This document shows, piece by piece, positions 52,956-62,121 of a stretch of DNA of 64,000 bases. Origin of the DNA: a virus; IMG/VR virus record IMGVR_UViG_3300027797_000021, positions 27,617-91,616 of that record; one strand, 5' to 3'. Position 1 is the first letter of the stretch, and each line of letters starts with the position of its first letter. A program made the translations under genes and the position numbers. The notes under the pieces are model-generated. The model was not told the origin of the DNA. It was given only the letters and a program-made list of their open reading frames with translations, and made no database searches.

Positions 52956-53003
52956 TTTGTTCTTTATCCTCCAAATTTCAAAACTCTATTTGAATCTCTC
53001 TTT

Positions 53004-53010
53004 ATAGTAA
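53004..53010 (-). promoter_or_regulatory. Candidate late-promoter motif TTACTAT
   Basis: Intergenic, about 49 nt upstream of the sheath ATG; the same motif is at 60963-60969 and 56813-56819, about 30 nt upstream of other starts. Confidence 0.35.
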
Positions 53011-56796: not shown

Positions 56797-57249
56797 TTAA
56801 GCGTTAGACATAATAGTAACGTCGATTGTCCCTGCCGAGTTATCCTCTAGAATAATAGTTTCTGCGCTGGAAATGGCATAGGCTTCATTCTTATTTATCG
56901 ATATTGCTATATATCCAGAGCTATACGTATCTTCGCTATTTAAACTTGAAATGGCATACGCGTTTGCGTTTATTGTACTTATTTCTGAGGATCCGTAACC
57001 GTCAAACATTGCAAAAGTCATATAGGATGACGTCTCAGTGTTTTCTATTACTCCGCTTGGAGTGATAACGGAATGACTATTAACAAAAACTAATGTGCTA
57101 TCTACAGATGGTGGCGATATAACAATAACGCCTAATATGTTTAGGCCACCAAAATTAGTAGTTAACCCAAAAGACTGAGGAGAAACTACATATACACCAC
57201 TATAATTGAAATGAGCTTGGTTATAGTCTATATCTCCATTGTAGAGCAT
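56797..57249 (-). CDS. Hypothetical virion protein
   Basis: 150 aa, beta-rich, in the fibre/neck cluster. Confidence 0.5.
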   Translation of the reverse strand: MLYNGDIDYNQAHFNYSGVYVVSPQSFGLTTNFGGLNILGVIVISPPSVDSTLVFVNSHSVITPSGVIENTETSSYMTFAMFDGYGSSEISTINANAYAISSLNSEDTYSSGYIAISINKNEAYAISSAETIILEDNSAGTIDVTIMSNA

Positions 57250-57262
57250 CTAAATCCTTTTA

Positions 57263-59396
57263 TTAGAATGTTCCACAATCAAATGTTATACCATCTATAG
57301 AACCACCGGTAATCGAAACGCTACTAGAAGCTTGCGTGGCCATTGATCCCAGTCCAAGAGTTGTTCTTCCACCAGCAGCGTCTACATCGTCAACCAATGA
57401 TCTACCAAATGTAGTGAACGTTGCTAAAGCTGCGGTGCCAGACCCCGTAAAATATGGAAGCCTGTCTGCAGCAGAAGTCAAGCCTGCTATAGCGGCAAGA
57501 TCTGCGTCATAGGCTTGAACATCTGAGCCGATGGCTAGACCAAGGCTTGCTTGTGCGGGCGCCTGATGCGCTAGTTGCTCCAGTTCCGCCATTAGCTAAG
57601 GCGATTGTGCTGCCATTCCAAGTGCCAGCTGTAATGGTTCCGACGGTGACAATACTGTCATCGCCAGAATAGGTTCCACCAGCCACTGCAGCAAGTGTAG
57701 CGTTGTATGCCTGAACATCGGACCCGATTGCAAGGCCTAGACTAGTTCTGGCCCCTGAAGCTGACGTTGCACCAGTACCACCGTTAGCCAAGGCAATAGC
57801 CGTACCATTCCAAACACCAGTTGCAATTGTTCCAACTGAAGTAAGGCTTGAGGCAGTTACTCCTGAGCCAAGAGTTGAGCCAGAGAGTACAGAAGTCCCT
57901 GCAATCAACAATGACTTGCCAGTCAGAAGATTAAGATTTTCTGAAGACGTCCATGCGTCAGTTGCGTCAATCCAGTTAAAGGTCTTATCTGTAGCACCCT
58001 TGAGTGTAAGGCCACCACCATCGGCACCTGCGTCTGTCGGGCTCGCAGTAGATCCAAGTTCGATGTTCTTATCGTCAACAGTTACAGTAGTTGAATTGAT
58101 TGTAGTGGTTGTGCCGTTGACTGTTAGATCGCCGGAAAGGACAAGGGAGGTACCAGTGGCAGCTCCGATGTTTGGCGTTACAAGCGTTGGCGTGTTAGCA
58201 AAAACGAGTGCGCCAGAACCAGTTTCATCTGAAATCACTGAAATAAGTTCTGCTGAAGTAGTAGCTGCAAAATCCGAAAGCTTATTTGCAGTAAGTGCTA
58301 CAGTACCACTGGCATCTGGGAGTGTAATTGTTCTATCTGCGGTTGGATCTGTGATTGCAAGAGTTGTTTCATGAGCGTCAGCTGTTGCACCTTCAAAAAC
58401 CATGCTTCCACTATTAAGTGTAAGTCCTGCAAATGTTACGCTTGCAGAGGTTGCTACATCTTGACCAATAGATAATGAGTGAGTTGTCCCCTCACCTGTT
58501 GTTGCTGCAGAAGAAGTAACGCCAGTTCCACCAGTTATTGTTGCTACATAGTTGCCACTAGTATTAGTTCCAAGCGCAATTTCTATAGTTGTAGAACTTG
58601 CTGCGGTTAAACGACCCTGGGCGTCAACCGTGAAGCTACCGACTGATGCAGCACCGCCGTATGAGCCAGCTGTTACTGCAGTGTTATCAAGGTTTAGGGT
58701 AAGCGTGTCAGTTGCAGAGGCCACCGATGTTAGGCCTGTGCCACCAACTATAGTGAAGGTATCTCCACCGGAAATTGTTAAATTGTCACCGTTGTCTGCA
58801 TCTACTGTAAATGAAGTAGAAATAGAAGCTGTTCCTGCTGCGGTCAAACGACCTTGAGCGTCAACTGTAAAGGTTGGAATTGCGCTAGCTGAACCATAAG
58901 ATCCTGCGGATACTGCAGTGTTATCTAAGTTCAATGTAATGGTATTAGTTGCGCTAGCGACAGATGAAAGCCCAGTTCCACCAGATATAGTTACGGTTTC
59001 TGCGTCATCGATTGTTTGCGAAGATCCCGAATCACCTGCTAAAGTAAAGTTGTATGTAGATGCAACTACAGCGCCATCTACATATGCTGTAGTTGCTACC
59101 GATGTTGAGTTGTTGCCAGCTGTTTGTGTCGTTGCAGTTGCAGAACCACCAAGGGCTAGTGTTCCAGAAAATGTTTTATTTCCAGTAATAGTTTGAGTGC
59201 CCGACAAGCCTACATAGGCGCCCAGGCCAGCAATGGCTTGAATTGTGGTTGCAGTTCCCCCTGCTCCACCTGATCCTTTACCGTAGTAAAGGACATCATC
59301 AGCTTCATTATATGCCAGCTCTGCGTTTTCAAGACTTGAGGGTGCGCCAGCAGCCCCGCCAGATGCTCTTCTTTTGATTCTGATTGTATTAGCCAT
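57263..59396 (-). pseudogene. Fibre protein gene interrupted by a 4-bp duplication (709 aa if repaired)
   Basis: Start MANTIRIKRR at 59396 with a GGAGG SD. GCTTGCTT at 57545-57552 breaks the second [17 protein letters not shown] repeat, and the downstream frame resumes the repeat and ends in DCGTF. Confidence 0.75.
58603..59050 (-). repeat. Two-copy internal fibre repeat, period 237 nt (79 aa)
   Basis: GGTGL.SVASAT.T.TLNLDNTAV.AGSYG.A....FTVDAQGRLTAA occurs twice; gcggt.aaacgacc is at 58603 and 58840. Confidence 0.85.
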
Positions 59397-59746: not shown

Positions 59747-60157
59747 TTATAAACTAAATATTTTATATTGTTCGTTACTCCAATTAATTGTGATGGAGAT
59801 AGGACTAGCACTAGAAGATACTGGAAGTCCAGTAGCTGTATCTATGTAGGCTAAAAGTCTTGATGTAGATCTAACTCCAGTATCTTTATATAAAACTAGA
59901 TAGGCAAAACCGCTAGTCCCGTAATCTTCTATTGTAATATTATCAGCATCAAAGACACCAGATGCTGTTGTTTTTCCGCTTAATAAACTAGTAGTTGCTG
60001 CGACTGAATCTTCACTAATGCTTGATAAGAATTCATGTGTACTTAAATTTACTGTATAAGTATTTTTTACTAATGCAATTTTTAAGTTATTGTCAGTTAG
60101 GTCAAATAAACCCTCTAGTAGGCCTTCTTTACCTTTTGTGTATAATGCATTTGCCAT
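59747..60157 (-). CDS. Small virion structural protein
   Basis: 136 aa; MANALYTKGKE...LKIALV...GVFDADN...LLAYID is a pattern common in phage minor structural proteins. Confidence 0.6.
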   Translation of the reverse strand: MANALYTKGKEGLLEGLFDLTDNNLKIALVKNTYTVNLSTHEFLSSISEDSVAATTSLLSGKTTASGVFDADNITIEDYGTSGFAYLVLYKDTGVRSTSRLLAYIDTATGLPVSSSASPISITINWSNEQYKIFSL

Positions 60158-60930
60158 TACAGACCCACCTCAGCCGATACGATTACTCTGTATTTATAGC
60201 CTGATTCAAAGTAATTTTTTCCATCAACATAGTAAACGGGAGTAGCGTCGTCTGACGGGAAGTCAATATATACATCTGGCTTCCATGAGTGCATCGAAAC
60301 CTCTGATGATACATTTTCCCATCTCGATGGAGTCTTTTGAATTTTCTTACGTTGAGCTTTAAAGTATTTTAATGTCAGAAAGTTTGATGCTGGACGAGAA
60401 CTGAATACAACTGTCACTCTTCCATTGTTCTCATCGTTGTTTAAATAAAAGTCACCATTAGAAGGATTAGTTGATTCTATATAGAAATTAGGATTCTTTG
60501 CTAGTATCTGATATCCAGTTTCTATATCAGCTCTTACTGATTTATCCTCTATCAACACTTCGTTAAGTACTGTTGCTTGGCTCTCTTGTAGAATTGAAGG
60601 AGTTGCCGAATTAGTTTGGCTAGTAAAGCTAATTTTTTCCTCAGCCACTGTTAGCCCAGATGAGTCAACTAAGTTAGTGACCCTGACAATATAGTCGGTA
60701 TTAGAGCTTAATACTGAATTCCAATAAAGAGTTAAAGTTCTACTGATCTGATTATAATCAGTAATTGTATTTATCGTTCTAAATGGAGATGAACTTTGAA
60801 CAGGTGTAGCTGAATCTGTTTGTACAATAAAATTAGCATTTATTAATGATGCTATCTTGATTGTCCTGCCAAATTTAATATTTACTGTATTAACAGTAAC
60901 TGTAGCACTATCTATCAAATATAAAGCCAC
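60157..60930 (-). CDS. Ig-like domain virion protein
   Basis: 257 aa with two Ig-like beta units (LSSNTDYIVRV, ESGYKYRVIV); immediately downstream of the capsid gene. Confidence 0.55.
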   Translation of the reverse strand: MALYLIDSATVTVNTVNIKFGRTIKIASLINANFIVQTDSATPVQSSSPFRTINTITDYNQISRTLTLYWNSVLSSNTDYIVRVTNLVDSSGLTVAEEKISFTSQTNSATPSILQESQATVLNEVLIEDKSVRADIETGYQILAKNPNFYIESTNPSNGDFYLNNDENNGRVTVVFSSRPASNFLTLKYFKAQRKKIQKTPSRWENVSSEVSMHSWKPDVYIDFPSDDATPVYYVDGKNYFESGYKYRVIVSAEVGL

Positions 60931-60983
60931 TCAACACACTCCATAATTATAATCCTGAACTAATAGTAATAAATTAATTCAAT

Positions 60984-61026
60984 AAAAAGCAAAGGGGCAG
61001 TAGATTTCTCTACCGCCCCCAGCTTT
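60984..61026 (-). terminator. Rho-independent terminator after the major capsid gene
   Basis: The minus strand reads GGGGCGGTAGA-GAAA-TCTACTGCCCC followed by TTTGCTTTTT. Confidence 0.8.
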
Positions 61027-61058
61027 AGGGTAATTTGTAACTATAACGACCCTAAGGT
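61025..61058. other. Hairpin containing a 20/22 match to 23S rRNA helix 69 / the I-CeuI site
   Basis: Plus strand 61037-61058 GTAACTATAACGACCCTAAGGT versus 23S GTAACTATAACGGTCCTAAGGT; stem TTAGGGT (61025-61031) / ACCCTAA (61049-61055). Confidence 0.6.
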
Positions 61059-61062
61059 TCTA

Positions 61063-62121
61063 TCAGCTTGCTTCGTTCGTAACCTGTATTTCATAGTTAC
61101 GGCTCAATCTGACGTTCTTAGCAACTGTGATACCCTCACCGTCACCCAGCATTACGATGTCGTAACGCTCCTTCATCTTGAGTGCACGAAGATCGCGACT
61201 CGGATCGTCGAACTGATCAGTGCTCATATCGTCCTTGACGAGAAGAGTACCGACTTCATTACGGTCGATGAGGAAAAGGTCTGACTTAGCTGCTGTTCCG
61301 CCACTCTTAGCTGTGAAGCTAACAAAAGGCGAAACAAGAACATTCAAGCCCATCGGGGCCGTCGAGTTCAGTGCGCCTTCTGGCGACTGAGGACGATATC
61401 CCCAACTTGTACCTACAGAAGATGCCGCTCCACCAGCGTGGAAGATGGAATCCTTGAGGAAGACCGACCACATTAATGGGTGCAGAATGAAATCTGTTGG
61501 GATATGATTTTCAGCCATAAGGATAGCAGCCATGTCCACAATGTCATCCCAGGTGACTGTCAAGTTGGCTGTGCCATTGATGTCTCTACCTGTTGTGTCA
61601 CTGTAACTACCACTGTCGTTATCGAATGCAATTGTAGCTGCATCCTTGAAACGGCTAAGAGCAATTTGCTCTTTCAAACGAGCCATAGCACGGCCGGCTG
61701 CGCGAACATGTAAACCGACAATGTCCCAAAGTGAATCAGCGATGACTTCCTCCGTAAAGGATAGCTTAACGCCCTTCTTTGAAACTTTGCCTTCTACCTG
61801 CTTTGCGAAAGCGAGTGCTTGCTCTGGATACTCTTGTCCTTCTGGGATCTCTGCTGCTTGAATAGCGTTGACTGCGGGGAACTCCAAAGAGCGTCCCTTA
61901 CCGAGACGAACAGTGGAAAGCAATGGAGTCACAAGTAGTTGTGGCTCTGCTGCTTCTTTAAGCGTACGCGAAAGAACTTTGGGGAAAAGTGCTGCTGCGT
62001 CTGGTGACGCAAAAGCTTCCTTAATTGTTACTCTGTTGTCTGCATCTATGTACCCGTCCTCAGTCAATACTGCTTCCCAAGCTGGGAGACCCGAGAGGAG
62101 CTCTTGGATTGTCTTACTCAT
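61063..62121 (-). CDS. Major capsid protein (HK97 fold)
   Basis: 352 aa; AAEIPEGQEYPE, KKGVKLSFTEEVIADS, PTDFILHP and KMKERYDI are HK97-fold motifs; AGGAGG SD and a downstream terminator. Confidence 0.9.
   Translation of the reverse strand: MSKTIQELLSGLPAWEAVLTEDGYIDADNRVTIKEAFASPDAAALFPKVLSRTLKEAAEPQLLVTPLLSTVRLGKGRSLEFPAVNAIQAAEIPEGQEYPEQALAFAKQVEGKVSKKGVKLSFTEEVIADSLWDIVGLHVRAAGRAMARLKEQIALSRFKDAATIAFDNDSGSYSDTTGRDINGTANLTVTWDDIVDMAAILMAENHIPTDFILHPLMWSVFLKDSIFHAGGAASSVGTSWGYRPQSPEGALNSTAPMGLNVLVSPFVSFTAKSGGTAAKSDLFLIDRNEVGTLLVKDDMSTDQFDDPSRDLRALKMKERYDIVMLGDGEGITVAKNVRLSRNYEIQVTNEAS

Follow-up and report, generated by a model that had tools for sequence, protein, structure and literature searches.

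The window analysed here is a stretch of 64,000 nucleotides at the end of a viral contig of 91.6 kb with a completeness rating of 43%. Near-complete relatives of this phage are about 193 kb in length, and the source is an uncultured lake phage of approximately 200 kb. The genes around the 3′ end of its major capsid protein gene are all located on the minus strand, and no tRNAs were found in the 64-kb window. Just past the capsid stop codon lies a compact RNA element in which two sequence blocks are part of a hairpin that is followed by an intrinsic terminator. The features are as follows.

61063..62121, minus strand: major capsid protein gene, 352 aa (PF25209 Phage_capsid_4, 1.3e-16; phrog_3922 major head protein, 4.6e-27)
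61063-61065, minus strand: capsid stop codon TGA
61059..61062, minus strand: linker UAGA, the 4 nt between the stop codon and the element (0-12 nt in 108/115 relative variants)
61050..61057, minus strand: block 1, CCUUAGGG, the 5′ arm of the hairpin, which complements 23S positions 1923-1930 with a G·U pair at U1923
61048..61049, minus strand: spacer UC, 1-3 nt long and variable among relatives
61037..61047, minus strand: block 2, GUUAUAGUUAC, located in the loop, the exact complement of 23S positions 1910-1920 and nearly invariant in the family
61032..61036, minus strand: 3′ part of the loop, AAAUU, 2-7 nt long and variable in sequence among relatives
61023..61031, minus strand: 3′ arm, ACCCUAAAG, which pairs with block 1 and varies among relatives, with pairing kept on the mRNA strand only
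60983..61020, minus strand: intrinsic terminator, GGGGGCGGUAGA-GAAA-UCUACUGCCCCU and then UUGCUUUUUA, which directly abuts the hairpin

The capsid mRNA (minus strand) reads ACCUUAGGGUCGUUAUAGUUAC beginning 4 nt past the stop codon, which corresponds to plus-strand positions 61058 down to 61037. An earlier note on this DNA had the coordinates, the sequence and the 4-nt distance right. The plus strand at 61037-61058 is identical to bacterial 23S rRNA positions 1910-1931 at 20/22 nucleotides. This rRNA segment reads GGCGgCCGUAACUAUAACGGuCCUAAGGUAGCGA in a true 23S gene fragment and in the Rfam bacterial LSU consensus, just as the note had given it, and GenBank records annotated as '23S ribosomal RNA' match the motif at 20/22 positions on the opposite strand. 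The mRNA is complementary to 23S at 20/22 positions, and the remaining two are G·U and U·G, the wobble pairs that had been claimed. The target of block 2 (23S 1910-1920) consists of the helix-69 loop and its two closing pairs. In the Rfam LSU consensus, helix 69 has a 6-bp stem (GgCCGU/ACGGuC) and a 7-nt loop (AACUAUA).

There is exactly one 22-mer in the window that matches the full 23S sequence on either strand at 20 or more of its 22 positions, and 40 shuffles of the window gave a mean of 0.05, with 1/40 containing any such match. Thus a single 20/22 match in 64 kb is borderline against chance on its own, as the note itself had cautioned. The sequence TTAGGGTTAC, found within an ORF of the unrelated Pectobacterium phage PcaP2EGY, is a 20/22 look-alike of the motif that shows how chance matches of this quality arise. 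The match in the window is more than chance because it is conserved in relatives. Second copies of the element, or a sense partner for it, were sought in four related genomes (G000-G003), and there are none beyond chance. The word GATATAGTTAC at window positions 58984-58994 (plus strand) matches block 2 on the opposite strand with one mismatch, which is at chance level by control counts. It is located within a 646-aa tail-fibre-like gene 2 kb downstream, and the same word is present at the same distance in the close relative G003.

A capsid-protein search of IMG/VR yielded 562 related stretches, with protein identities of 90-100% in the best 80 of the 562. Nearly all capsid relatives whose sequence extends past the stop codon carry the same series of features, in which CCTTAGGG and GTTATAGTTAC are separated by 1-3 nt and precede a stretch that varies, a complementary arm and a terminator. 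The pattern CCUUAGG-R-(1-3 nt)-GUUAUAGUUAC is present near the capsid stop codon in about 240 viral contigs among the matches listed. Pattern scans of viral contigs revealed at least 120 more with CCTTAGGG, approximately 38 with CCTTAGGA and 3 with CCTTAGGY, although these scans required parts of the motif and so carry an ascertainment bias that is countered only by the loci retrieved through the capsid protein. Most family members also share one ancestor, and these counts are therefore not counts of independent events. Within the family, CCUUAGG is invariant and is followed by G in most representatives, A in approximately 38 contigs and C or U in 3. A purine at this eighth position, as pairing with U1923 would favour, is common and not obligatory, given that the C and U forms are present in 3 contigs that represent few independent events. 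There is one copy of the element per genome. When the motif was searched for downstream of the capsid genes of relatives, as the note had advised, its start was found 0-12 nt past the stop codon in 108/115 variants.

The extent of this conservation was measured only with loci retrieved through the capsid protein, which avoids the bias of retrieval by the motif. The 33 unique loci of this set have a nucleotide diversity of 0.414 at third and 0.035 at second codon positions of the capsid gene, compared with 0.034 for block 1 (CCTTAGG) and 0.070 for block 2 (GTTATAGTTAC), both of which are non-coding. The level of constraint on these non-coding blocks matches that on second codon positions. Change has meanwhile accumulated in the linker and spacer, in the 3′ part of the loop, in the 3′ arm and in the terminator stem, whose sequence varies among relatives with compensation. 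The motif has been lost in one lineage (L062 and L071). There is also a sub-lineage (L078-L081, L172, L204 and L225) in which a whole extra hairpin, GUCACUGAAAAGUGAC, is inserted in the 3′ part of the loop while both blocks remain intact. The earlier note had named an absent or unconserved motif in the capsid 3′ UTRs of relatives among the grounds for abandoning its idea, and the clear outcome is the opposite: the motif is widespread and its blocks are low in diversity. The RNA module at the extreme 3′ end of the capsid mRNA is real and under strong selection.

Selection falls exactly on the part that is complementary to 23S rRNA (positions 1910-1920 and 1924-1930/31). The conserved positions face universally conserved rRNA bases, and the variable spacer faces positions 1921-1923, which are lower-case (variable) in the Rfam consensus. 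Some relatives are nearer to the exact anti-23S sequence than the window is (for example CCUUAGGACUGUUAUAGUUACG), and there are block-2 variants that break a pair with 23S (GCUAUAG, GUUAUAUUUAC, and A or U at the first base). The proposal that all 22 nucleotides can pair holds for the window, where both differences are compatible with wobble pairing. It does not extend to the family as a conserved feature, since spacers that allow a continuous, uninterrupted 22-bp duplex with 23S are found in only 25/64 variants.

The predicted minimum-energy fold of the element is a 7-bp stem (UUAGGGU/ACCCUAA) closing a 17-nt loop that is mostly open, in agreement with the fold that the note had drawn. Within this loop, a weak 3-bp inner helix is predicted over the ends of block 2. 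The terminator that had been placed just past the element is indeed located there, and is composed of a 12-bp stem plus a U tract at 61020-60993, directly 3′ of the hairpin. There is no U tract on the hairpin complementary to helix 69, which thus does not qualify as an intrinsic terminator itself; the next hairpin is the terminator.

Covariation supports the stem. Pair counts were made with our own script because MAFFT alignments of the trimmed hairpins were gapped at the ends and could not carry the structure. The 3′ arm of 56 unique hairpins was located by a score that gives G·U and A·C equal weight, and their six core pairs comprise 268 Watson-Crick pairs, 52 G·U pairs, 2 A·C pairs and 14 mismatches. 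At the eighth base of block 1, the pair is G-C in 42 hairpins, G·U in 3, A-U in 6, C-G in 2 and U-A in 1. The first base of the spacer pairs with the base preceding the 3′ arm, and the two change together, with this next inner pair being U-A in 27 hairpins, A-U in 5, C-G in 5 and U·G in 5. Thus two pairs change on both sides, and the covariation that the note had asked about favours the stem, with both pairs beating all 5000 partner shuffles, albeit among related sequences whose changes are not independent events. The changes in the 3′ arm are C to U opposite G and A to G opposite U, which keep pairing on the mRNA strand only. The ratio of 52 G·U to 2 A·C pairs indicates that the structure is an RNA on the capsid-mRNA strand, and its direction is unambiguous. 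A stable fragment of approximately 75 nt that contains the hairpin plus the terminator may also exist.

The capsid gene is found in lake metatranscriptome assemblies (RNA libraries) from 18 studies. In two studies, the RNA-library contigs of this gene stop at 61030 and 61056, which is a weak hint of transcript ends, given that such contigs carry no strand, end or level information and that assemblies also break at hairpins. Several other observations concern the surroundings of the element. The G+C content steps sharply at the capsid terminator (window 60000-62000), from 47-49% in the capsid and scaffold genes to 34% in the next 1 kb, which corresponds to an Ig-like domain protein. Relatives diverge abruptly just beyond the terminator, as at a mosaic junction. 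The sequence (T)GTTACTAT(T/A)A is kept between the capsid terminator and the next gene in nearly all relatives. The corresponding word TTACTATWA is present at 60961-60969, 53002-53010 and 56811-56819 (all minus strand), with 7 copies in the window versus about 3 expected, and probably belongs to the promoter of the gene downstream. We considered whether the motif could be this promoter word in reverse but dropped the idea, as there are only 7 window copies and few are in promoter-like settings. An extension of the capsid protein by read-through or frameshifting was also ruled out, because all three frames close within the motif.

The letters of the motif are also found on other scaffolds. In a second capsid lineage (phrog_1623), whose protein has no significant similarity to the capsid of the window (BLASTP E 0.45), the motif letters again follow the stop codon. 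The predicted stem of this lineage (GGACGUUAU/AUAAUGUUC) leaves block 1 unpaired and half of block 2 paired. In two of its members (L187:1528-1612, minus strand, and L226), the sequence CCCUAG, which is able to pair with block 1, doubles as the 5′ half of the terminator's stem, such that block 1 and the 3′ half of the terminator could compete for it in an attenuator-like manner. Fold predictions place the entire motif within the loop of an unrelated stem in one contig (L321), and inside a larger hairpin after a terminase-like ORF in another (L315). In a third (L107), the exact 22-mer follows a 195-aa ORF and the 3′ arm is missing. The invariance of block 1 despite its varying partner, together with the invariance of the loop block, indicates a constraint on both blocks beyond hairpin formation. 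Selection acts on the letters rather than on the fold, and a linear sequence of 18-19 nt that is kept on different scaffolds with a flexible spacer points to a base-pairing partner.

Our best reading is that the element acts through base pairing to the helix-69 region in the host 23S rRNA, which is a proposal drawn from sequence comparison that we hold with about as much belief as doubt. The observed conservation, strand, structure and complementarity lead us to infer this partner, and every downstream effect described here is conditional upon it. Helix 69 is the central intersubunit bridge of the ribosome and meets tRNAs, release factors and the recycling factor. First contact would be made between the phage loop sequence UAUAGUU and the 7-nt helix-69 loop AACUAUA, after which pairing would spread into block 1. 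Both features expected of such a kissing interaction are present, with block 2 in the predicted loop and its target AACUAUA in the helix-69 loop, and the pairing itself is a thermodynamic estimate. The predicted net duplex gain after opening both hairpins is -17.1 kcal/mol, versus -2.6 ± 1.7 for shuffled targets. Because continuous 22-bp pairing is available to only 25/64 variants, the model must consist of two helices of 7-8 bp and 11 bp that are separated by a small internal loop.

Helix 69 takes part in bridge B2a of the 70S ribosome, where tertiary contacts hold it in place. For this reason, and because pairing beyond the loop needs the stem to open, free 50S subunits or assembly intermediates would be the realistic targets. 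Since the element starts 0-12 nt past the stop codon, its 5′ arm must be melted by a terminating ribosome, and the module would therefore be exposed as the 50S subunit is released. The exposed module would then probably capture or tether 50S subunits on the most abundant late message, or else interfere with subunit joining or 50S assembly. Counting against pairing is the consideration that sequestration of 50S subunits would cost the phage too.

Another possibility is that the hairpin serves as an operator to which a phage RNA-binding protein or the capsid protein binds, controlling the stability, processing or translation of the capsid message, and that the likeness to anti-23S sequence is meaningless. 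A conserved 5′ arm combined with a conserved loop is typical of protein-bound hairpins, the element is present as a single copy per genome beside one gene, and the variants that break 23S complementarity are also in keeping with an operator. However, a protein that reads structure would not tolerate the various scaffolds on which the 18-19 conserved letters occur, some of which fold differently and some not at all. Furthermore, the probability that both blocks fall on adjacent 23S segments by accident is about 1e-6 by our own calculation (which considers 18 fixed bases and a flexible spacer in about 9 kb of rRNA strands), and no candidate protein has been identified. We consider that an operator is possible and, on balance, unlikely.

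Sequences in the sense orientation of helix 69 bring up a different candidate partner. A motif scan of a genome collection identified 47 places, of which approximately 13 are true 23S genes with a variant base and approximately 30 are not rRNA. The non-rRNA copies read cGTAACTATAACgNCCCTAAGGtagcga, which corresponds to 23S 1909-1937, and they are found in Cyanobacteria, Myxococcota, Saprospiraceae, Chloroflexota, Catenulispora and Verrucomicrobia. Where tRNAs are nearby, which is the case for 20 sense loci, the segment always runs in the same direction as they do. Examples are located as follows.

L242:2040-2260 (minus strand), L249:4518-4698 (minus strand) and L256:2847-3027 (plus strand): sense copies among the bacterial loci L236-L282
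L302:7595-7615: sense copy in one viral contig

An alignment of twelve of these loci reveals a structured RNA of more than 150 nt. Both sides change in 14 of its predicted pairs, and the G·U pairs are found in the sense orientation. A helix-69-like hairpin is part of the predicted fold, with a closing pair that switches from C-G to A-U. Matches to YrlA (Y RNA-like) RNAs are present near the sense copies, above threshold in L256 and below it in L242. These RNAs share with the capsid element the same 23S segment and the same tolerance of change at positions 1921-1923. They differ in that they imitate helix 69, whereas the capsid element is its complement, and also in scaffold and genomic setting.

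It is conceivable that these helix-69-like RNAs of tRNA and Y-RNA-like arrays in bacteria and other phages, and not the ribosome, are the target, such that the capsid tail neutralizes them or is soaked up by them. The sense segment cGUAACUAUAACgNCCCUAAGGuagcga is carried by about 30 non-rRNA bacterial loci, where it is embedded in a larger structured RNA, with YrlA matches nearby and with co-orientation in the 20 loci that have tRNAs in the vicinity. In 8 loci it is the exact complement of a 21-mer of the window, and their CCC pairs perfectly with the GGG of the phage. However, the CCC form follows from the design of the genome scan, which required CCTTAGGG, and the G and A forms both occur in both classes. 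In addition, the near-complete phage relatives have no sense copy, and no TROVE/Ro60 gene was found in the related phage genomes. For these reasons, we judge it quite unlikely that the array RNAs are the target.

The hairpin might instead serve only as a 3′ stabilizer or terminator helper that protects against exonucleases, with its sequence frozen by descent. Such a function would suit a hairpin that abuts a terminator, and the ends of RNA-library contigs at 61030 and 61056 provide a weak hint in the same direction. It requires a stem, however, and not an invariant 11-nt loop, and the adjoining terminator, spacer and 3′ arm have diverged freely while the blocks stayed as conserved as second codon positions. 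This makes a purely stabilizing role very improbable.

A function at the DNA level, either as an I-CeuI-like homing endonuclease target, which the earlier note had offered as one option, or as a recombination or packaging site, is suggested by the resemblance of the plus strand to the I-CeuI site region of 23S rDNA and by the sharp G+C change at the junction, but it is contradicted by half-to-half spacing that varies by 1-3 nt among relatives, by a missing TAGCGA half-site (the stop-codon region is in its place, and only 1910-1931 is matched, at 20/22), by variation that obeys the pairing rules of RNA on one strand, and by searches in which neither a LAGLIDADG_1 (PF00961) match in the four related genomes G000-G003 nor a group I intron or other Rfam match in the window was found; it is almost certainly wrong. 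Equally improbable is the note's other option of a helix-69 mimic on the opposite strand, since although the plus strand also folds well and sense copies occur elsewhere in nature, the 52 G·U versus 2 A·C pairs contradict it, the neighbouring genes are all on the minus strand, there is no promoter-like site for the plus strand nearby and the partners that would form the helix-69 stem are absent.

The element does not correspond to any RNA family in Rfam. A scan of the window with 4227 Rfam models yielded nothing at the gathering threshold. In a scan of a smaller region, the best sub-threshold match is to RF02353 (BjrC68), with 27.6 bits versus a gathering score of 39. This RNA resembles the element in that a hairpin is followed by a G+C-rich terminator, but the match is driven by the terminator and skips the loop in the alignment, and membership was rejected on the basis of this score and the skipped loop. 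There is no DNA match to the capsid region in the GenBank phage collection. A 35-nt motif query of the same collection returned only 23S genes in 'phage' records and chance 20/22 matches, with no cultured phage carrying the element. Among such records, MZ092003.1 of Paenibacillus phage Pd_22F (L329:1360-4465) holds full 23S and 5S genes, and several short 'phage' GenBank records likewise hold complete or partial 23S/5S rRNA genes. These represent either host DNA in the assembly or transduced DNA. In full-text literature searches, we found no description of the element, or of helix 69 in connection with phages, antisense RNAs, small RNAs or tRNA arrays. We also found no description of a natural trans-acting RNA against a functional centre of mature bacterial 23S rRNA.

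There are nevertheless several known systems that share some of its features. CopA/CopT of plasmid R1 and RNA I/RNA II of ColE1 are loop-presenting antisense RNAs whose pairing starts by a loop-loop kiss. Like these RNAs, the capsid element has a hairpin that shows at least 7 nt complementary to the loop of its presumed target, from which pairing can spread into the stems, and a terminator hairpin comes next. Unlike them, its presumed target is a functional centre of mature rRNA and not an mRNA or primer, and the antisense part resides in a protein-coding message. Motif 1 of the calicivirus TURBS pairs with helix 26 of 18S rRNA, and plant-virus 3′ translation enhancers bind the large subunit. 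In these cases also, an element of a viral message is located by the stop codon or in the 3′ UTR and plausibly holds ribosomal subunits. However, those elements are eukaryotic and target 18S rRNA or bind by shape, whereas here the message is that of a phage and the presumed target is 23S helix 69. Furthermore, the capsid element has no downstream cistron on which to re-initiate, because a terminator follows. Finally, group I introns inserted near 23S position 1923 have internal guide sequences (P1/P10 strands) that resemble the element in their two-part complementarity around U1923, with a G opposite U1923. The element lacks a ribozyme core (P3-P9), in contrast to such introns, with only about 40 nt preceding the terminator and no Intron_gpI match.

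A bolder version of helix-69 pairing brings the two classes of RNA together. Perhaps helix 69 is contested ground, where phage anti-helix-69 modules and the helix-69 look-alike decoys of tRNA/Y-RNA-like arrays are direct antagonists. The module, once unfolded by the terminating ribosome, would seize or shield helix 69 of the 50S subunit that has just been released, and cells and other phages would carry the look-alike RNAs as decoys for the same players. We regard this version as unlikely as it stands.

Kulik and co-workers (2017, Biochimie 138:32, as cited in PMC12828698) are said to have treated helix 69 as an antisense (PNA) target. If our preferred reading of pairing with host 23S rRNA is correct, the capsid element would be a natural precedent for antisense antibacterials that are aimed at this helix. 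The distribution of helix-69 look-alikes in tRNA arrays across many phyla suggests that this site matters in conflicts more widely. From its sequence, the capsid-mRNA element suggests that phage messages may pair with the large ribosomal subunit in a way that is so far undescribed. If true, this would represent a new viral way of handling host ribosomes, selected in hundreds of lake phages and placed after their most expressed gene.
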